A stretch of DNA of 64,000 bases from an uncultured Candidatus Rokubacteria bacterium (GTDB taxonomy: Bacteria; Methylomirabilota; Methylomirabilia; Rokubacteriales; DASRDR01), in the NCBI GenBank assembly GCA_963826115.1, contig CAWGVS010000005.1, positions 32,001 to 96,000 of the forward strand, read 5' to 3'. The translations under genes were made by a program, and so were the position numbers. Positions 28,158 to 35,453 of this stretch are shown here, in pieces; position 1 is the stretch's first letter; each line of letters begins with the position of its first letter. The notes beneath the pieces are model-generated. The model had not been told where the DNA came from and ran no database searches. It saw nothing but the letters and a program-made list of their open reading frames with translations.

Positions 28158-30029
28158 TCACGGATCCCGCGCGGGCGCGGTCCGCGGCGACCCCGCCCAT
28201 TCCATCCATTCGGCCAGCACGACGAGCGTCCAGATGGCGCGCGCGTGGTCGCCCTGGCGCTTCCGGTGCAAGTCGAGGAGGCGCACCGCCGCGTCGGGAT
28301 CGATCCCCGCCATGCGGAGCCGGCCGTCGCCGAGGCGCGCCGCGGCCCACGCGTGGAGCGGGCCCCGGAGCCAGCGCGCCAGCGGGACCGACAGCCCGCG
28401 CTTCTTGCGGCGGACGATCTTCGACGGGAGGTACCGGAGCGCGAAGCGCTTGAGAAAGACCTTCGTCGTCACGCCCCGCACGCGCTCGGCCGCGGGCAGG
28501 GAGGCGGCGAACTCCATGACGGCCTGGTCGAGGTAGGGCGCGCGGAGCTCGAGCGCCGAGCGCATGCTCGCCCGGTCGGCCTTGGTGAGGAGGCCCTCCG
28601 CGAGCGACGTTTCGAGATCGATCCGCTGGAGGACGTCGAGGACCGCGTCGCCCGGCTCGATTCGCTCGTCCGCCGGTTCTTCCTCGAGACCGAGCCGCCG
28701 CAGGAGCTCGGGCGAGACGCTCGACGTCCAGTGCCGGTGTCGCTCCACCGGACCGAGCTCCGCCGCCGCCACGAAGCGCTTCAGCAGGTAGGACAGGGTC
28801 ACCTTCCGGTCGCTCGGCGGCCACCGCTCGACGACGCCGCGGAGGACGCGGCGCATCGGCCGCGGCAGCCGCGCGTAGCGCTCGGCCATGGCGGCGCCGA
28901 CGTAGGTCGGGTACCCGCCGAAGAGCTCGTCGGCGCCCTCGCCGACCAGCGCCAGCTTGACGTCGCGCGCGGCCCGGCGGGCGAGGAGCGCGGTCGGCAC
29001 CCAGGCGGGGTCGGCGAGCGGCTCGCCGACCAGGCGGATCAGCTCCGGCAGACCGTCCTGGAGCGCCTCCGGCGTCACGGCGACCGGCGTCCAGTCGAGC
29101 CCGAGCTGGCGCGCCACCTCCTCGGCGACGCTCCCCTCGTCGTAGGACGTCTCGCGGAACCGCAGCGTGTAGGCGCGGAGCCGCCGATCCGGCGCGAGGT
29201 CCGTGGCGACCGCCGCGACCAGCGACGAGTCGAGCCCGCCGCTCAGGAAGACCCCGCACTCGACCTCGGCGTCGGACTGGCGGCGGATCGCCTCGCGGAA
29301 CACGTCGTCGAACCCCGCCACCGTCGGCGCCCGCCGGCTCGCCGGCCCGATGGACCAGCGCCAGTACCGCCGGCGGGTCACGCCCTCCCGCTCGACGACG
29401 ACGACCTCGCCCGGCGCGACCTTGCGCACCTCGGCGAACGGCGTCTCGGGCGCCGTGAAGTAGCCGAAGCGGACGTAGCGGCCGAGCGCGCGCCGGTCCG
29501 GCGTGAGCTCGAGGGCGGGGTCGACGGCGAGGGCGGAGATCTCGGTGGCGAAGCGCACCACCCCGTCCCGGTGGTGGTAGAAGAGCGGGCGCTCGCCGGC
29601 GCGGTCGCGGGCGAGGACCAGGCGGTCGCGGCGGGGATCCCAGACGGCGATCGCGAACACGCCCGACAGGCGCTCCACGAACGCGTCCCCCAGCTCGAGG
29701 TAGAGCCCGGGGATCACCGCGACGTCGGTCGCGGCGGCGACGGGGCGCCCGCGCGCCTCGAGCCACGACCGGAGGCTCGCGTGGTTGTCGATCTCCCCGT
29801 TGCAGACCGCCACGATGCCGCTCCCCGACTCCACCATCGGCTGCCGGCCGTCGGCGAGACCGCGGATCGCGAGCCGCGTGGCCCCGAGCACGGCCGCGCC
29901 GGCTCCGTGGAGGCCCGAGTCGTCGGGCCCGCGGTGCGCGAGCGCGTCGATCATCGCGCGGACGTGGAGACCGGCCCACGCGGCGTCGAGCCCGACGCCG
30001 GGAGCCGCGATGCCGCAGACGCCGCACAT
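28158..30029 (-). CDS. asnB: Asparagine synthase (glutamine-hydrolysing) family amidotransferase
   Basis: N-terminal MCGVCG, HRGPD, CNGEI, RDRAGERPL, LSGGLDSS, GEGADELFGGY, KADRASM, ELRAPYLD. Confidence 0.93.
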   Translation of the reverse strand: MCGVCGIAAPGVGLDAAWAGLHVRAMIDALAHRGPDDSGLHGAGAAVLGATRLAIRGLADGRQPMVESGSGIVAVCNGEIDNHASLRSWLEARGRPVAAATDVAVIPGLYLELGDAFVERLSGVFAIAVWDPRRDRLVLARDRAGERPLFYHHRDGVVRFATEISALAVDPALELTPDRRALGRYVRFGYFTAPETPFAEVRKVAPGEVVVVEREGVTRRRYWRWSIGPASRRAPTVAGFDDVFREAIRRQSDAEVECGVFLSGGLDSSLVAAVATDLAPDRRLRAYTLRFRETSYDEGSVAEEVARQLGLDWTPVAVTPEALQDGLPELIRLVGEPLADPAWVPTALLARRAARDVKLALVGEGADELFGGYPTYVGAAMAERYARLPRPMRRVLRGVVERWPPSDRKVTLSYLLKRFVAAAELGPVERHRHWTSSVSPELLRRLGLEEEPADERIEPGDAVLDVLQRIDLETSLAEGLLTKADRASMRSALELRAPYLDQAVMEFAASLPAAERVRGVTTKVFLKRFALRYLPSKIVRRKKRGLSVPLARWLRGPLHAWAAARLGDGRLRMAGIDPDAAVRLLDLHRKRQGDHARAIWTLVVLAEWMEWAGSPRTAPARDP

Positions 30030-30030
30030 C

Positions 30031-31749
30031 CTAGGGCCGTGCCGCCGGCGGGACGAGGGCGCCCCACCAGCCGGGGCGGAGCTCGACCACGGGGACGCCG
30101 CGCGCCCGGCCGATCTCGTCGAGGAGCGCCTTCGCGTGGTCCCTGGTCACGACGTACACGGGGACGGTCTGCCGGGCCAGCCACGGGCCGCGGTCGTCCA
30201 GGCGGACCAGGATGGCGGGCCAGTTGCGGTCGTGCTTCAGGCGATAGCGCACGTAGTTGCTGGTCAGGCCGCCCCGGCCGCGCTGGGTGATGTAGGTCAC
30301 CGGCTGGCCCACGTAGTACGGCAGCCCCACCGCGAAGCATTCGAGGCAGGCCACGATCGTGCCGGGCGGCCGCGGGTCGAGCGCGCGCGCGAGGGCGCGC
30401 GACGAGCTCGCCTCCGCGTAGCGGGCCGCGGTGCCGAAGCCCACCGCCAGGAAGAGGACGGCGGGGAGGACGAACACGCCGAGGGCGAGCCGCGGGTCGC
30501 GCCAGAGCCGCACGGCGAACGCCATGATGGCGATGCCCCCCAGGGCCGCGACCAGGACCCCGATGTCCGGCTGAAGGCGCCCGAACTCGTTGCTCTCGAA
30601 GTCGAGCAGGTCCTGCAGGCGGTCCGGCCCGGCGAGGTTGAGCGACAGCGCGCCGGCGGCGACCGCGCTGAGGAGCGCCAGGCCCACGCTGGCCCGGAGG
30701 ATCAGACGGGTCGCCCGGCCGTCCGGCTGGGTGAGCGCGTGGTCGAAGAGCCGCGCGGTCAGGGCGGCCAGCGCGACGACGCCGGGCAGGATGTAGCCGG
30801 GCCGCTTGCCCTGCGAGGTCGAGAAGAACGCGACGACGACGACCGCCCACACGATCAGGAAGCGATCGACCGGCGTCCAGCGAGCGCGGTTCCGCCACGC
30901 GGCTACCACTGCCTCCGGCAGGAGCGCGCTCCACGGGAAGAAGACGACGAGGAGGATCGGCCCGTAGTAGTAGAACGGCTCGGTCCGGCGGAGCGTGGCC
31001 GTGGCGTACCGGCGCATGGTCTCCTCGACCAGGCCGTAGTGGACGAACTCGGGGTGCTCCCAGACGAGGGCGACGAACCACGGAAGGACGATGGCGAGGA
31101 ACAGAAGGACGTTCACGGGCGCCAGCATCCGGAGGATCGCCCGCGGCCGCCGCTCCACGAGGTGAAGGACCGCGAGGACGACCGCCGGCACCAGGAACCC
31201 CACCGGCCCCTTGATCAGCGTGGCGACGCCGCTCGCGGCGGCGCCGACCAGGAGCCATCGTCGCCGCGAGGCCCCGTCCTCCTCGGCGAGGTACCCCGCC
31301 AGGATGGCGCCGCACACGAACAGCGCGAGCTGCATGTCGAAGATCACCAGCCGCGCGAACCCGACCACGAGCGGCGTGGTCCCGAGGACGAGCACCGTCA
31401 GCGCTGCGACCCGCTCGCCGTACGCCCGCCGGCAGAAGAGGAACATCATGATCGCGAGCGCGGCGGCGCTGACCGCGGAGGGCAGGCGAGCCGTGGCCTC
31501 GGAGCGTCCGAAGGCGCCGAACGAGAGCGCCACCGCCCGGAAGTAGAACGCCGGCTTGTCCAGATAGGGGATCGCGTTGAACGTGGGCACCACCCAGGCG
31601 CCCGACTCCGCCATCTCGCGCGCGACCTCGGCGTTCCGGCCCTCGTCGGGGTCGATCAGCGGTAGCTCGCCCAGGCGGCCGAAGAACATGAACGCCGCCA
31701 CCAGGAACGCCGCCCCGGTGAGGACCCGAGGCTGCCATCTCCGCATCAA
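30031..31749 (-). CDS. ArnT/GT39 4-amino-4-deoxy-L-arabinose transferase-like glycosyltransferase
   Basis: DPDEGRNAEVAREM, YLDKPA, ARLPSA, LIKGPVG, PWF, PFYYY, KRPGYILP. Start TTG 31749 or ATG 31746. Confidence 0.88.
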   Translation of the reverse strand: MMRRWQPRVLTGAAFLVAAFMFFGRLGELPLIDPDEGRNAEVAREMAESGAWVVPTFNAIPYLDKPAFYFRAVALSFGAFGRSEATARLPSAVSAAALAIMMFLFCRRAYGERVAALTVLVLGTTPLVVGFARLVIFDMQLALFVCGAILAGYLAEEDGASRRRWLLVGAAASGVATLIKGPVGFLVPAVVLAVLHLVERRPRAILRMLAPVNVLLFLAIVLPWFVALVWEHPEFVHYGLVEETMRRYATATLRRTEPFYYYGPILLVVFFPWSALLPEAVVAAWRNRARWTPVDRFLIVWAVVVVAFFSTSQGKRPGYILPGVVALAALTARLFDHALTQPDGRATRLILRASVGLALLSAVAAGALSLNLAGPDRLQDLLDFESNEFGRLQPDIGVLVAALGGIAIMAFAVRLWRDPRLALGVFVLPAVLFLAVGFGTAARYAEASSSRALARALDPRPPGTIVACLECFAVGLPYYVGQPVTYITQRGRGGLTSNYVRYRLKHDRNWPAILVRLDDRGPWLARQTVPVYVVTRDHAKALLDEIGRARGVPVVELRPGWWGALVPPAARP

Positions 31750-31860
31750 GACCCTCGCCTTCTTTCCAGGAGGAGTCGCCGGCGGCGGCGCGGCGACGAC
31801 CTGCGCCCCGTTCCGCGAGCGAGCGGGCGCGTCAATTCGGAAGGGGACCTGGCGAGCGTC
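31750..31860 (-). promoter_or_regulatory. Putative anti-SD/SD pairing (translational attenuator) between the RAPP ORF and the ArnT-like gene
   Basis: On the minus strand GACGCTCGCC, directly after the RAPP stop (plus 31851-31860), is 9/10 complementary to GGCGAGGGTC, directly before TTG/ATG (plus 31750-31759). Confidence 0.55.
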
Positions 31861-32154
31861 CTAGGCCGGAGGCGCGCGGGAGCCGAGGGGGTCGCGCGCA
31901 ACGTTCGGGGGGCCGGCGACGTCGGCGGAGGCGAGGCGCTCCCCCGGCGCCGACACGATGAGCCGGAGCTCGCTTCCCGTGGCCGGCACGTCGGCCCACT
32001 GGGACAGGGTCTTCCAGATGAGCCCCACGTCGTCCTCGTCGCCGTCGTAGTGACCGCGCGGGTGGAACTCGGGACCGAGCGCCACGCTGGCGAGCGCGAG
32101 TCCGAGGACGACGAGGAGAACGGCTGAAACGACGCATGCTTCGCCGCGATGCAT
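31861..32154 (-). CDS. Putative ribosome-arrest leader peptide (97 aa): TM/signal, acidic HYDGDEDD motif, C-terminal RAPPA
   Basis: MHRGEACVVSAVLLVVLGLALASVALGPEFHPRGHYDGDEDDVG...DPLGSRAPPA-stop. Extended -10 TGtTAGGAT lies 5 nt before the ATG. Confidence 0.65.
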   Translation of the reverse strand: MHRGEACVVSAVLLVVLGLALASVALGPEFHPRGHYDGDEDDVGLIWKTLSQWADVPATGSELRLIVSAPGERLASADVAGPPNVARDPLGSRAPPA

Positions 32155-32159
32155 GGCCA

Positions 32160-32232
32160 ATCCTAACACGGGGACCGCCGCTCCCGTTGCTTGCCCGCCG
32201 CGTTGTGAAGCGACCCGCGGCGGTGCTATGGT
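32160..32232. promoter_or_regulatory. Divergent extended -10 promoters for the two RAPP ORFs (leaderless)
   Basis: Minus: TG-T-TAGGAT (32168-32160), 5 nt, ATG 32154. Plus: TG-C-TATGGT (32224-32232), 6 nt, GTG 32239, with TTGTGA at 32203-32208. Confidence 0.5.
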
Positions 32233-32238
32233 GGCGCC

Positions 32239-32799
32239 GTGCGGCTCCGTGTGATCCGGCTCACGCTCGCGCTCTCCCTGACTCTCGCCGCGGCGCCTGT
32301 CTGGGCGCACGGGATCAACGGGCCCCTCGCCCTCGACGATCTTCGCGAGCCCACCGTCGCCGTCGTGGGCCCGAGCGCGGAGCCCGCGCGCGCGCCGGAC
32401 GCCGCTATGCCGGCCCACCTCACCGCGGCGCCACGCGGGCGCCTCGCCGGCGGCGACGGCCTCGCGGCGGCCGCGGGCGTCCTGATCGCGGCGGCGGGAC
32501 TCGTGGGCCTCACGCGCGGCTGGCGGCGAGACCCGCGGCGGGCGATGGCGACGGCCACGGCCGCCCTGGTCCTGGGGTTCGTCGTCGAGACCACGCCGCA
32601 TCTGGTCCACCACAGCCTGGATCCCGACAAGGGCGCCGGCTGCCAGGTGCTCCAGACTGTCGAGCGCAGCCAGGCCGCGCTCGGCACGCCCGACGTCGTC
32701 CCCGCCGAGACGCCGAGTCGCCTGGTCGAGACGCCGCCCCGCGAGACGGCGCCGACCCTCGCCGCGCCCGCGGCTGTCGGTCGCGCTCCGCCCGCCTAG
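32239..32799 (+). CDS. Putative copper-responsive ribosome-arrest leader protein (CutF/CruR/DUF2946-like), C-terminal RAPPA
   Basis: Signal peptide ending VWA-H, two hydrophobic segments, PHLVHH..GC motif, Pro/Ala linker, GRAPPA-stop. Lies directly upstream of copCD. Confidence 0.7.
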   Translation: MRLRVIRLTLALSLTLAAAPVWAHGINGPLALDDLREPTVAVVGPSAEPARAPDAAMPAHLTAAPRGRLAGGDGLAAAAGVLIAAAGLVGLTRGWRRDPRRAMATATAALVLGFVVETTPHLVHHSLDPDKGAGCQVLQTVERSQAALGTPDVVPAETPSRLVETPPRETAPTLAAPAAVGRAPPA

Positions 32800-32801
32800 C
32801 C

Positions 32802-32890
32802 CGCTCCTCCTTCTCGCAGTTTCCATCGTCGCGCGACCGCGCGGGACCGTTCCGCGCTCGCGCAGAATCGTCGAGATTCACGAAGGAGCG
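32802..32890 (+). promoter_or_regulatory. Putative anti-SD/SD structure controlling copCD translation
   Basis: CGCTCCT (32802-32808) and CTCCTTC (32807-32813) just after the RAPP stop complement GAAGGAGCG (32882-32890). An inner GC hairpin lies at about 32831-32863. Confidence 0.55.
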
Positions 32891-32894
32891 ATCC

Positions 32895-34880
32895 ATGGAG
32901 CGCCCGGGGCCGGACTTCCGGCCGCCGCCACCCGTGCCGGGCAGTGCCGCGTCGCCGCCTTTCCGACGTGCACGTGCCACGTCATCCGTCACGCGGCGCG
33001 GGCTCGTGGCGGCGGTGGTCGCCGTCGCCTGGGCCCTGCCTGCGACGCCCGCGGGGGCGCACGCCGTCCCGGCCGCGATGGAGCCGCCACCGAACGCGCG
33101 TCTGGACCGCGCGCCCGGCGAGGTGGTCATCCGCTTCACCGAGCGCGTCGAGGCGCGTCCCAGCAGCCTGGAGGTGCTCGACGCGCGCGGCCAGCGTGTC
33201 GAGCAGGGCGCCGCCGCCGTGGTCCCTGGCGATCCCTGGCGGTATCGCGTCGCGCTCCCGGCGCTGCCCGACGGCGTGTACACGGTGGCCTGGCGCGTGC
33301 TCTCCGCCGACGACGGCCACGTCACCAGCGGCGCCCACGTCTTCACGGTGGGCGCCGCCGGGGCGCCGGGCGGCGAATCTGCGCCCACCCTCCGGAGCGG
33401 AGTGGGAGGGAGGCCGTTCGCGCGGTGGCTGGTCGGGCTCGGCGGGGCGCTGCTCCTCGGCGCCCTCGTCGCCGGACCGCTCCTGGGCCTCGGGGGGCTC
33501 GGTGGAATGATCGTCCTGGGAGGGATCGCGGTGGCCGCGGGGGCCACGCTCGACCTCGCGCTCCAGGCGCGAGACCTGGCTGGCGAGCGCCCGCTGGCCG
33601 GCGTCCTCGCAGCGCTCCTGCTCAGCCCGCCCGGCTACGCCGGCCTCGCTCGCATCGGTCTCGTCGCGCTCCTGCTCGGCCTCCTCGGCCTGCGTGGCTC
33701 GCGGGCGCGAGCCGGCGATGGCCGAGCGCGGGTCGGTGCCCTCGTCGCGATGGCCATCGTGGCGACGGGCGGCCTCGTGAGCCACGGCGCGGCCGCGGCC
33801 GAGGGGCGAGCGCTCGCGCTCGGCGCCGAGGCGCTCCACCTCCTCGCGATGGCGTCGTGGGTCGGCGGGCTCCTCTGCTTCGCGACGGTCTACTGGCGCG
33901 CGGGCGCCGCGGGGACGGCCGATCCGGAGACCGAGCGCCTCGTCGTGGCGATCCCGACCTTCTCCCGGCTCGCGGTGTTCGCGGTCGCGATCATCGGGGT
34001 GAGCGGTCTCCTCCTCGCGCGCCTTCACCTCTCGGCGTGGAGCGAGCTCCTCGACACCACGTACGGCCGGTGGGTCGGGGCCAAGGTCGCGGTCTTCCTG
34101 GCGATGATGGGGCTCGGCGCGTGGCACCAGTGGGGCGTCGAGTCGCGGCTCCGGCGCGCGCTGGCTCGCGGCCTCGCGGGGTCGGGCGCGGTGTCGCTCT
34201 TCCGGCGCACGGTCCGGATCGAGGCGGCCCTCGGCCTCGCCGCGCTCGGACTGGCCGGCGCGCTGGGCGTGACGGCGCCGCCCTCGGGGTCGTCATCGGC
34301 GGGGGTGGTGGAGACCCCGGCGGCCGCGCCGGCGGGCTTCACTCACGAGCGCGCCCTCGACGCGGCCCGTATCCGGCTCGAGATCACGCCCGTTCGGCCC
34401 GGGCCGAACGCGATCCGCCTGACGGTCACCGATCCCGCGGGCCGTCCGCTCGCCGACGCCACGGCCGCCCTCGTCCAGGTGACGCCGGCCGACGCCAGCG
34501 TGGGCGCCGTCTCGTTCCAGCTCGATCGCGCGGCGCCGGGCGTCTTCACCGCGCCGTCCGCGGTGTTGGGGTTCGCGGGCCGCTGGAGCGGACGCCTGGT
34601 CGTCCAGCGGACGAACGCCTACGACGTGAACGACCGGTTCGACCTGGTCGTGGCCGAGGGCGTTTCCGACCACGCCCACGTTCATGCCGCCGCGCCCGCC
34701 GTGGCGGCGACCGCCCCGCGCCGCGGGACGCCCTTGGACCGCGCCACCGTCTCGGTCGCCCTGGCGGCCGCGGTCGCCTCACTCGTGCTCTTCCTGCGAA
34801 GCGGCCGTCAGCTTGACGCGGCTCGCCGCCTCGTGTCCGACAACCCACAACCGCCGGCGTCCGCGCCGGCCCGGAGGTGA
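32895..34880 (+). CDS. CopC-CopD fusion copper uptake/resistance protein (YcnJ/CutJ-like) with C-terminal YtkA/FixH-like domain
   Basis: AGA-HA..., YTVAWRVLSADDGHV (CopC); SHG, HLLAMASWVGGL, YGRWVGAK (CopD); ITPVRPGPN domain; DHAHVH near the C-terminus. ATG 32895 follows GAAGGAG. Confidence 0.88.
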   Translation: MERPGPDFRPPPPVPGSAASPPFRRARATSSVTRRGLVAAVVAVAWALPATPAGAHAVPAAMEPPPNARLDRAPGEVVIRFTERVEARPSSLEVLDARGQRVEQGAAAVVPGDPWRYRVALPALPDGVYTVAWRVLSADDGHVTSGAHVFTVGAAGAPGGESAPTLRSGVGGRPFARWLVGLGGALLLGALVAGPLLGLGGLGGMIVLGGIAVAAGATLDLALQARDLAGERPLAGVLAALLLSPPGYAGLARIGLVALLLGLLGLRGSRARAGDGRARVGALVAMAIVATGGLVSHGAAAAEGRALALGAEALHLLAMASWVGGLLCFATVYWRAGAAGTADPETERLVVAIPTFSRLAVFAVAIIGVSGLLLARLHLSAWSELLDTTYGRWVGAKVAVFLAMMGLGAWHQWGVESRLRRALARGLAGSGAVSLFRRTVRIEAALGLAALGLAGALGVTAPPSGSSSAGVVETPAAAPAGFTHERALDAARIRLEITPVRPGPNAIRLTVTDPAGRPLADATAALVQVTPADASVGAVSFQLDRAAPGVFTAPSAVLGFAGRWSGRLVVQRTNAYDVNDRFDLVVAEGVSDHAHVHAAAPAVAATAPRRGTPLDRATVSVALAAAVASLVLFLRSGRQLDAARRLVSDNPQPPASAPARR

Positions 34881-34886
34881 GAAGCC

Positions 34887-35453
34887 ATGCGCGCGATATC
34901 GACGATGACGTGGAGCCTCGCGGCCCTCGTGGCCCTGCTTGGTCTGGCCGGTCCGGCCGCCGCCCACCAGCGGCAGCTACTCCAGGTGGGAGGAACGGAC
35001 TACCTCCTGGTCGTCGGCTCGCTCGACGAGCCTGTGTTCACGGGCGACAAGAGCGGCGTCGACCTGACGGTCCTCGTGCCGGATCCGGGGGCCCCCATGG
35101 ACTCGCGCGCCGAGAAGGCGAAGCCGGTCGAGGGCCTGGAGAAGACGCTGAAGGTGGAGGTCAAGGCCGGCCCGCACGCCCGAGTGTTCGAGTTCGAGCC
35201 CAGGTTCCGGGCGCCGGGCCGGTACGACGCGGTGTTCTTCCCGACCGTGGCCACGACGTACACCTACCGCCTCTTCGGAACGATCAACGGCGCGCCGTTC
35301 GACGTGGCCTTCGTCTGCAACCCCGGCGGCCACATGGCCGGCGAGGACCGGAGCGTGGTGAAGGTGTCCCAGGACGTCACGCGGAAGGGCCTCACCGGAA
35401 GCTTCGGGTGCCCGCGGGCCCGGAGCGAGGCGGAGTTTCCCCCGACGAGGTAG
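34887..35453 (+). CDS. Secreted hypothetical protein with predicted mature N-terminal His, co-transcribed with copCD
   Basis: Signal peptide ...GPAAA-HQ; VVGSLDEP, VEGLEKTLKVEV, PGRYDAVFFPT; GGAGG SD. Confidence 0.75.
   Translation: MRAISTMTWSLAALVALLGLAGPAAAHQRQLLQVGGTDYLLVVGSLDEPVFTGDKSGVDLTVLVPDPGAPMDSRAEKAKPVEGLEKTLKVEVKAGPHARVFEFEPRFRAPGRYDAVFFPTVATTYTYRLFGTINGAPFDVAFVCNPGGHMAGEDRSVVKVSQDVTRKGLTGSFGCPRARSEAEFPPTR

Follow-up and report, generated by a model that had tools for sequence, protein, structure and literature searches.

Two short open reading frames (ORFs) lie back to back in the genome of an uncultured Candidatus Rokubacteria bacterium, and both end in the residues R-A-P-P-A, which raises the question of whether they are translation-arrest leaders for the genes behind them and whether the two form one regulatory unit. 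The stretch of DNA analysed, referred to here as the window, comprises 64,000 nucleotides (nt) and corresponds to G000:C5:32001-96000, where G000 is the host genome (6.24 Mb, 72% G+C); positions are those of the window unless they carry a C prefix, which marks contig coordinates of G000. An earlier note on the window had read the pair as a twin nascent-chain sensor locus, and that interpretation as a whole is partly supported. ORF A and ORF B seem to be unrelated leader genes that evolved independently. Each belongs to a conserved, unnamed family of its own and is most likely a nascent-chain sensor for the genes downstream, and we put the probability that both are regulatory arrest leaders of the RAPP type at roughly 0.7. 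The central result, drawn from sequence comparison, is that in these two unrelated families a candidate sensor motif and the R-x-P-P (RxPP) tail are held at a fixed distance while the sequence between them is free. The features on which this reading turns are the following.

31861-32154, minus strand: ORF A, 97 amino acids (aa), ending in R-A-P-P-A and then TAG
32239-32799, plus strand: ORF B, 186 aa, ending in R-A-P-P-A and then TAG
31867-31878, minus strand: RAPP codons of ORF A (CGC GCG CCT CCG), proposed arrest site
32782-32793, plus strand: RAPP codons of ORF B (CGC GCT CCG CCC), proposed arrest site
32029-32049, minus strand: YDGDEDD codons of ORF A (residues 36-42), an acidic motif just past the hydrophobic segment and candidate exported sensor element
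32599-32643, plus strand: H121-C135 codons of ORF B (HLVHHSLDPDKGAGC), a candidate metal-binding motif at the outer end of the second transmembrane segment (TM2)

Coordinates and sequences agreed with what had been said of the pair: the ORFs are divergent and unrelated to each other, both close with RAPPA and a stop codon, and 84 nt separate their start codons (32155-32238). The two tails are written with different synonymous codons, and the G+C content at codon positions 1, 2 and 3 (0.80, 0.52 and 0.88 in ORF A; 0.83, 0.61 and 0.91 in ORF B) is similar to that of the adjoining genes. In so G+C-rich a genome R, A and P are common residues, and the tails might be a chance product of G+C-rich codons, or the ORFs might not be genes at all. 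Among the 69,675 six-frame ORFs of at least 40 aa in G000, 102 closed with RAPP and at most two further residues, mainly in non-coding frames, and seven ended in RAPPA. Four of these seven were coding-like in G+C, three being mutual paralogs (ORF A, C12:700522-700803 and C5:104348-104698). Of the 12 possible orderings of R, A, P and P, RAPP was the least frequent in the crude proteome (58 occurrences versus 78-122), and RGPP (34 versus 46-102) and RSPP (14 versus 20-52) were likewise the rarest orderings of their residues; depletion of the motif from bacterial proteomes is also described in PMC12992588. This depletion, the conserved families, the fixed spacing, the synonymous variation and the coding-like third codon positions together indicate that the tails are not an accident of G+C-rich codons. 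A chance origin was ruled out by the conserved tails and fixed spacing of hundreds of homologs, and we give it practically no weight. Both tails are evidently conserved as protein and not as DNA. Substitutions in their core are mostly confined, in both families, to A, G and S at the second position of the motif, the residues listed as arrest-permissive there in PMC12992588.

ORF B begins with a signal peptide ending in VWA before HG, followed by a variable region, a first transmembrane segment (TM1), the sequence WRRDPRR, TM2 ending in PHLVHHSLDPDKGAGC, a variable linker of 46 residues, and GRAPPA. It matched no family in Pfam (at E<=0.1) or NCBIfam. Among 5.8 billion proteins searched, 52 were close homologs, with the nearest named relatives in metagenome-assembled genomes labelled 'Candidatus Rokubacteria / Rokuibacteriota'; in 50 of the 52, RAPP and one further residue close the sequence and Cys is separated from Arg by exactly 46 residues, and the other two look frameshifted. 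The residues invariant among these homologs were F114, P120, H121, H124, H125, L127, D128, D130, G132, C135, Q139, R143, A183 and P185. A six-frame profile search located the B family in 41 of the 251 genomes of the phylum, distributed over six GTDB families; this tally and the locus tables take in one locus of the unpublished genome G076, which bears on none of the conclusions and without which the count is 40 of 250. Identity to ORF B outside its genus was 25-33%, and in an alignment of 26 diverse members (mean column identity 41%) only H, H, H, C, R, P and P were invariant, the first four being H30, H33, H34 and C44. This alignment was made without L026 (the G076 locus), the near duplicates L025, L036 and L040, and the frameshifted locus L017 of genome G237.

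Searched against 1.84 billion cluster representatives, the B-family profile matched 1067 at E<=0.001, of which 394 also passed E<=1e-10; most are about 100 aa long. The 150 representatives listed contained 146 new sequences, and RxPP was located near the C-terminus in 144 of these (RAPP in 127, RGPP in 11, RSPP in 5 and RPPP in 1), the remaining two looking truncated or frameshifted. The core of the family is one transmembrane helix ending in PHxVHH, then 9-11 residues and a Cys. The long form of this genus has in addition a cleavable signal peptide and a second transmembrane segment, and its predicted mature N-terminus is a conserved His (WA before HG). An N-terminal export or transmembrane segment had been claimed for both ORFs and was recovered in both: in ORF B as a signal peptide and transmembrane segments read from the sequence and as helices 2-23, 73-97 and 99-127 of an AlphaFold2 model, and in ORF A as a hydrophobic helix at about residues 7-27. 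The model of ORF B, which contains a further helix at 133-148, has a mean predicted local distance difference test score (pLDDT) of 62 and a predicted template modelling score of 0.34, and at this low confidence served for helix positions only. The ORF B linker is hypervariable and predicted to be disordered. An ESM Atlas search returned clusters of unnamed Rokubacteria and Methylomirabilota only, apart from leads to DUF2946 (rank 30), DUF6769 and SecM_small clusters at 0.89-0.91, a kind of match that is often due to chance.

ORF A is built of an N-terminal Arg-containing segment, the single hydrophobic helix, HYDGDEDD, a variable linker of 50 residues and DPLGSRAPPA, and it too matched no family in Pfam (at E<=0.1) or NCBIfam. 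The ...RDPLGSRAPPA tail is nearly invariant among its 35 close homologs. At the RAPP codons, homologs vary by synonymous changes only. An alignment of 18 paralogs and orthologs, made without L048 (no RxPP) and the frameshifted L047 and L054, was almost gap-free, and its only invariant residues were D32, G33, D37, R88, P90 and P91, that is, the D, G and D of YDGDxDD and the R, P and P of the tail. Profile searches found three A-family paralogs in G000 and up to five per genome in relatives. The family is confined to one GTDB family (9 of its 20 genomes, and 0 of the 230 elsewhere in the phylum), and a profile search of protein clusters gave 146 clusters, all unnamed. RxPP was present in 118 of 125 A-superfamily sequences (RAPP in 62, RSPP in 54, RGPP in 1 and RDPP in 1), mostly followed by one or two residues, and the seven sequences without it look truncated or frameshifted. 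Conservation of the tail in homologs, which the earlier note had proposed as a check, was therefore found in both families. The stop codon was TAG in 16 of 19 A-superfamily leaders, compared with 31% TAG in the crude gene set of the genome, and in 16 of 33 B-superfamily loci; the loci are related, so this excess is possibly inherited.

In ORF B, 46 residues lie between Cys135 and Arg182, and in ORF A 50 residues lie between Asp42 and Arg93, matching the earlier placement of a candidate ligand motif 46-50 residues before RAPP. These distances proved to be fixed across homologs. Spacing from Cys to Arg was 46-48 residues in 26 of 26 diverse B-family sequences and in 141 of the 143 library representatives in which both were located. 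The acidic motif of the A family was 49-52 residues from RxPP in all 114 sequences (of 125) with both located, and 48-51 residues from it at the 19 genomic loci with RxPP (49-51 in 18 of them; the 20th locus, L048, is the one without RxPP). In both families the sensor motif and the R, P and P of the tail were the only invariant parts, and the linker between them was hypervariable. The number of residues after RxPP was usually 1-9 in B library representatives, and this variability indicates that the position of the tail is set by the upstream motif and not by the C-terminus.

The same observations bear on the possibility that the tail has a role in the mature protein, for example as a tag for sorting, a protease or partner binding, without regulatory arrest, and that the genes merely stand first in their operons. 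Conserved motifs could act in a mature membrane protein, and the inconsistency of the RNA coupling modelled below would fit such a role. A C-terminal tag would be expected at a fixed end, yet it is the upstream distance that is fixed, the linker is hypervariable and predicted to be disordered, two unrelated families and DUF2946 share both the tail and the ruler, and the host proteome avoids the motif. This makes a mature tag quite improbable. The published spacing rule is that of DUF2946/CruR, in which CXXC and RAPP are 45 residues apart and changes of the spacing impair regulation (PMC9426467). Both families come near this ruler of about 45 residues, with 46-48 in B and 49-52 in A. The ribosomal exit tunnel is filled by about 30-35 residues and the path from the ribosome through SecYEG spans roughly another 12-17, lengths which imply that a motif 46-52 residues out would just have emerged on the periplasmic side at arrest.

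If both ORFs are arrest leaders, as we consider probable, the conserved motif after the last hydrophobic segment would face the periplasm. With R-A-P in the P site and the following Pro in the A site, an arrest position inferred from CruR toeprinting, the ribosome would be about 46-51 residues past the motif, peptide-bond formation would stall, and the exported motif would be just out of the ribosome-SecYEG conduit. The fate of the motif would then set the pulling force on the chain and hence the duration of the stall. The signal in B would be metal binding by HxxHH...C, probably of copper, and in A an event at the acidic YDGDxDD patch. A ribosome stalled on the last codons of the leader would raise expression of the downstream operon by one of two routes: it may melt a pairing of the leader 3' end or the post-stop pyrimidine tract with the downstream Shine-Dalgarno (SD) sequence and start codon, as in CutF and SecM, or it may keep Rho off a C-rich spacer, as in CruR. 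The genes that would be controlled in the window are listed here.

32895-34880, plus strand: gene for a CopC-CopD fusion (copCD) with a FixH-like C-terminal part, first gene downstream of ORF B
30031-31746, minus strand: gene for a GT39 / PMT_2 membrane glycosyltransferase, ArnT-like, first gene downstream of ORF A
28158-30029, minus strand: gene for an asparagine-synthase-type glutamine amidotransferase (AsnB-like), second gene of the ORF A operon

Each leader heads a co-directional operon, copCD in the case of ORF B and the GT39 and AsnB-like genes in the case of ORF A. The copCD product matched CopD (2.3e-19), CopC (5.5e-19) and FixH (2e-05) in Pfam; the GT39 product matched PMT_2 (3.7e-16) and PMT (2.6e-14), as well as the NCBIfam ArnT model at 6.8e-63, which is below the cut-off of that model. 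The amidotransferase matched Asn_synthase (1.5e-82) and, above the cut-off, TIGR01536, and its gene is separated from the GT39 gene by a 1-nt gap. Synteny with copCD and arnT, another check proposed for the locus, was retained: copCD followed B directly in all six same-genus loci, and an A-type leader was followed by an ArnT-like GT39 gene in 5 of 5 loci. More widely in the phylum, a CopC gene was within 1.5 kb downstream of B in 18 of 30 loci, and the other genes after B leaders included BBP2 porins, TonB with a TonB-dependent receptor, and DUF3105. The C-type leader, a paralog in the A family, was followed by GT4 in 4 of 6 loci, and other A-family paralogs precede genes for PAP2, GT21, a B12-binding radical SAM enzyme, a PF04185 phosphoesterase, a methyltransferase, UPF0047 and another PMT_2 protein. 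Envelope lipid or glycan modification is the apparent common theme of most genes downstream of A-family leaders.

This context also bears on whether the ORFs are monitoring substrates and not ligand sensors, reporting Sec or YidC translocation, secretion capacity or the proton motive force. The A motif is an acidic run beside a transmembrane segment, where the membrane potential pulls on acidic residues, and the position of A paralogs before many different genes would fit a general signal of envelope state. The class of arrest peptides was itself discovered in Sec/YidC monitors (PMC7897499, PMC10987492). A monitor of that kind would be expected upstream of a protein localization component, and no Sec or YidC component was found among the downstream genes looked at, which encode CopCD and GT39/AsnB in the window and GT4, GT21, PAP2 and others at the paralogs. 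In B, a metal is indicated by the invariant His, His, His and Cys and by the association with CopC, CopD, TonB and porin genes, and the strict ruler matches the ligand-sensing DUF2946 case. We therefore consider monitoring an unlikely explanation, and prefer to read both ORFs as sensors of a signal at the exported motif.

The kind of control proposed is already known, as RAPP/RGPP leaders, including leaders of copper genes, were published in 2025 (PMC12992588). According to that source, C-terminal RAPP/RGPP is enriched among small proteins that are secreted or membrane-bound, whose genes stand before sec, TonB-receptor, YcnI, PCu(A)C, PepSY, DsbA/thioredoxin and sigma-factor genes, and seven such proteins of Streptomyces lividans (e.g. 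SLIV_16130, SLIV_18480) as well as CruR arrest translation. Both ORFs have the sequence features of this class: a conserved R-(A/G/S)-P-P core near the C-terminus of a small protein with a signal peptide or transmembrane segment, encoded upstream of and co-directional with its neighbour. They share with the S. lividans proteins a size below 300 aa, a signal peptide or transmembrane segment, RxPP near the C-terminus and a co-directional downstream gene; copper-related downstream genes, conserved His/Cys and depletion of the motif from proteomes are likewise described for that class (PMC12992588). The S. lividans proteins differ in belonging to other phyla, and they were compared with ORF A and ORF B by description and not by sequence.

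CruR (Bp2923) of Bordetella pertussis belongs to DUF2946/PF11162 (PMC9426467), and its arrest was demonstrated, with toeprinting, in PMC12992588, with the P site occupied by the first Pro codon and the A site by the second. Arrest of CruR keeps the downstream genes on (PMC9426467, PMC12992588). CruR resembles ORF B in being a small exported protein that heads a copper-related operon, with a Cys metal motif, a fixed linker (46-48 residues in B, 45 in CruR), RAPP only a few residues from the stop codon, and a spacer that is long and G+C-rich. It differs from ORF B in having CXXC where B has HxxHH and one Cys at the end of the transmembrane segment, and a TonB-dependent transporter downstream where B has copCD. 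ORF A is unlike CruR in lacking any Cys or His motif, and the place of DUF2946 leaders at the head of a copper operon is shared by B (copC-copD) and not by A.

Membership of either ORF in DUF2946 was rejected. At E<=10, PF11162 matched 0 of the 52 B homologs and 0 of the 36 rows of an A alignment (35 homologs and one mis-framed row, L001:4522-4800), and one library member (P0102) reached E 0.92. The best PF11162 score in a six-frame search of G000 was 14.5 bits, compared with a cut-off of 23.7 bits, and the 251 genomes of the phylum gave one match, a B-like protein (L061) with 25 bits against the same cut-off. CXXC and CxxxC are absent, B having HxxHH, 9-11 residues and a single invariant Cys, and A the acidic YDGDxDD. 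The score of L061 and the DUF2946 cluster in ESM Atlas make a remote relationship between B and DUF2946 possible.

CutF of Rhodobacter capsulatus is a co-translationally exported nascent sensor of periplasmic copper; when it stalls near its C-terminus, the ribosome melts a stem-loop whose anti-SD sequence (CTTC) hides the SD of the next gene (PMC9973294; bioRxiv 10.1101/2025.02.05.636593). Its stalling motif is termed PPP or proline-rich and is EF-P dependent, and its sensor is CxxxC (bioRxiv 10.1101/2025.02.05.636593). The earlier note had named RAPP as the arrest motif of both CruR and CutF, which holds for CruR and is not supported for CutF, 'RAPP' being absent from the main text of the 2023 paper (PMC9973294). 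The ORF B spacer is like that of CutF in its CTCCTCCTTC tract directly after the stop; the leaders described here are unlike CutF in that no conserved SD-masking helix could be demonstrated at the ORF A and ORF B loci. ApdA, ApdP and SecM have a RAPP or RAGP core at the peptidyl-transferase centre, an export signal and arrest-dependent regulation of the next gene (PMC10951233, PMC7897499), a build like that proposed for ORF A and ORF B. They differ in having Sec components downstream and translocation force as the signal, where copper-handling and envelope-modifying enzymes are found here.

Coupling between the leaders and the genes behind them was examined at the RNA level, for which the relevant segments are these.

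31747-31860, minus strand: spacer between ORF A and the GT39 gene, 114 nt, with SD-like GAAGGCGAGGG at 31752-31762
32800-32894, plus strand: spacer between ORF B and copCD, 95 nt, with SD GAAGGAG at 32882-32888
32800-32815, plus strand: pyrimidine tract, anti-SD-like CTCCTCCTTC, directly after the ORF B stop

The leaders had been placed about 95-115 nt upstream of membrane-protein operons, and the distances measured were 95 nt from the ORF B stop to the copCD ATG (32895) and 114 nt from the ORF A stop to the GT39 ATG (31744-31746), or 111 nt to an alternative TTG (31747-31749). Leader spacers were long in general (84-201 nt). Minimum free energy folds of the window pair the RAPPA-stop region and the nucleotides following it with the SD and start of copCD and of GT39. 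When a ribosome was modelled at the arrest site and then at the stop site, the opening energy of the SD at B fell from 14.0 to 11.1 and then to 8.5 kcal/mol; at ORF A it fell from 16.3 to 10.4 kcal/mol with the ribosome at the arrest site, and ribosomes modelled 30-60 nt further upstream had no effect on SD opening. The 60 nt after the stop had C minus G of +0.10, versus +0.02 in 572 control spacers (Mann-Whitney p 4e-4 and 5e-5), and post-stop pyrimidine content was 0.62-0.64 versus 0.515 in control spacers. Of 26 B loci, 17 had CTCC or CCTC in the first 30 nt behind the stop codon, compared with 163 of 572 control spacers; the B spacer tests were done without L026, L025, L036, L040 and L017. 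Both rho and efp are in the genome. SD unmasking, as in CutF and SecM, and Rho protection, as in CruR, would both fit these data. An RNAalifold comparison of four C-type loci gave no convincing covarying SD-masking helix, and a scan against Rfam gave nothing meaningful (one snoRNA match at E 0.34).

A conserved piece containing CCCATACAAT is present in the A-type leader-GT39 spacers of three relatives (L041-L043), is absent from the spacer of the window, and recurs upstream of GT39 in G237 (L017, 2108-2218), where there is no ORF A; it may be an internal promoter. The C-type spacers (L005, L045, L050, L052) share a conserved block CTGAACTGA and, behind it, a G+C-rich hairpin, CCGTCCGG...CCGGACGG, together at about 25-65 nt past the stop codon. 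This hairpin shows some compensatory changes and has no U tract behind it.

Several points weigh against reading both ORFs as regulatory arrest leaders. The folds were no better than those of shuffled sequences (z-scores -1.08 for B and +0.67 for A), RNAalifold gave no conserved long-range anti-SD:SD helix in six B loci and only invariant pairs in five A-type loci, and the model showed clear SD unmasking at only one of five A-type loci, at 0-1 of the four C-type loci and at 2-3 of the six B loci. Significance in the composition tests is overstated, the sequences being related and the controls coming from one genome. RAPP nonetheless occurs 58 times in the crude proteome, and RAPP alone is insufficient for arrest, a suitable preceding sequence being needed (PMC12992588). 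The export and topology of the leaders were read from sequence and a low-confidence model (pLDDT 62), and the ligands proposed for A and B are guesses. In G237 the GT39 gene stands without ORF A, which indicates that the leader is dispensable.

Transcription of the two ORFs would start from elements placed as follows.

32224-32232, plus strand: extended -10 element TGCTATGGT, 6 nt before the ORF B GTG
32203-32208, plus strand: -35-like TTGTGA, upstream of the ORF B extended -10
32160-32168, minus strand: extended -10 element TGTTAGGAT, 5 nt before the ORF A ATG

An extended -10 element 5-6 nt before each start codon had been pointed out earlier, and both elements were present and conserved. 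TGnTAnnAT preceded the start codon by 5-6 nt in all 11 A- and C-type loci; positions 3-4 vary, which identifies the element as a -10 box and not an SD. All six same-genus B loci had the arrangement TGCTAnnGT, 6 nt, GTG, and five of them also had GTTGT some 18 nt further upstream; of 17 more distant loci, only two had the arrangement. Across the genome, TGnTAnnnT followed by ATG or GTG showed a peak at spacings of 6-7 nt (41 and 50 sites, versus 10-16 at 2-5 nt), and 61-80% of the sites at 6-7 nt open a coding-like ORF. Leaderless mRNAs are predicted for both leaders, and, judging by the genome-wide peak, leaderless transcription from extended -10 promoters seems to be common in this organism. 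A scan of 31650-32950 with sigma-70 and terminator consensus sequences gave 0 sites, and the case for the extended -10 elements rests on their conservation.

The two -10 elements are 55 nt apart, and two of the roughly seven RxPP-tail genes in 6.2 Mb start only 84 nt from each other, for which we estimate a chance of about 0.003; both facts would suit a single twin sensor with shared bidirectional control of copper and glycosylation genes. The adjacency of A and B was seen in this genome only. Among the 14 other genomes of the genus, seven have B and seven an A-superfamily gene; the four same-genus genomes with an ArnT-linked A-type gene gave no B match, and the seven others with B have no ArnT-linked A-type gene (two have C-type paralogs). 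In the closest relative, G237, B and GT39 remain divergent neighbours, and a piece of 427 nt that comprises ORF A with its promoter and the greater part of its spacer is missing. The claim that the pair works as a unit thus failed, and shared control is very improbable. The back-to-back arrangement is, as far as gene order tells, a local accident and not a functional unit.

RAPP/RGPP arrest leaders have lately turned out to be widespread and to stand before genes well outside protein secretion, yet the signal that is sensed and the element that senses it are known for almost none of them. Two cleanly delimited families emerge from this locus, one large (1067 representatives) and one restricted to a single taxonomic family with several paralogs per genome, and they would add two independent cases to the single published spacing rule, that of DUF2946. 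The rule bears on how force or ligand binding is transmitted from outside the membrane to the peptidyl-transferase centre. As far as the literature searched goes, the two families, their ruler, the YDGDxDD sensor candidate with its link to glycosyltransferases and lipid enzymes, and the leaderless promoters are undescribed. The main text of PMC12992588 never mentions glycosyl, CopC, CopD, YcnJ, divergent or CutF, and its figure 4 lists or supplements may include such groups. No paper was found that links RAPP arrest peptides to glycosyltransferases, and no paper among the matches listed joins an arrest peptide with CopC or CopD. Table S1 of PMC9426467 and the appendix lists of PMC12992588 may already include the two families or their downstream groups.

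In an uncultivated soil phylum, the A family would extend control by arrest leaders to glycosyltransferases and enzymes that modify lipids. A tentative and rather doubtful extension is that YDGDxDD-(50)-R(A/S)PP proteins form a lineage-specific regulon of leaderless nascent-chain sensors, in which the acidic patch might read divalent cations, cationic peptides or the membrane potential and arrest might switch on the ArnT-like GT39, GT4, GT21, PAP2 and phospholipase C-type phosphoesterase genes. Such a regulon, taken with the HxxHH...C family and DUF2946, would make a case that unrelated exported sensors have converged on a ruler of 45-52 residues set by ribosome-translocon geometry. PhoQ has a comparable acidic patch, and in model bacteria lipid and glycan remodelling is controlled by two-component systems. 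The paralog of ORF A at C5:104348-104698 (plus strand, locus L006), 8 kb past the end of the window, has YYDGDADD, 51 residues and RAPPA-TAA, and lies about 220 nt upstream of a PF04185 phosphoesterase gene of the phospholipase C / acid phosphatase type.

Further small ORFs of the same build were observed outside the window. Three of them, C4:196835-197434, C6:25989-26378 and C5:295526-295864, are all on the plus strand and coding-like; one has HSAHH...C, 48 residues and RAPPVPPA, one HEH...C, 48 residues and RGPP, and one VYDGGGLDD, 48 residues and RAPPLA. G000 has at least seven leader candidates with an RxPP tail.

The gene after copCD (34887-35453, plus strand) encodes a secreted protein of 188 aa with no Pfam match. 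A mature N-terminal His is predicted for this protein (AAA before HQ), for CopC (AGA before HA) and for ORF B (VWA before HG), all in one operon. Elsewhere in the phylum an unnamed secreted protein of 300-350 aa, also with no Pfam match, is encoded in many genomes between the B leader and copC (L019, L020, L023, L024, L027-L029, L031, L033 and L039), and it has the conserved N-terminal block RFFPATLxIDDPFVADELSLP. In three of the six same-genus relatives (L014, L015 and L016) the only start-like codon 6-7 nt after the copCD SD is ATT or ATC, which suggests that the copCD start codon is non-canonical in those genomes.

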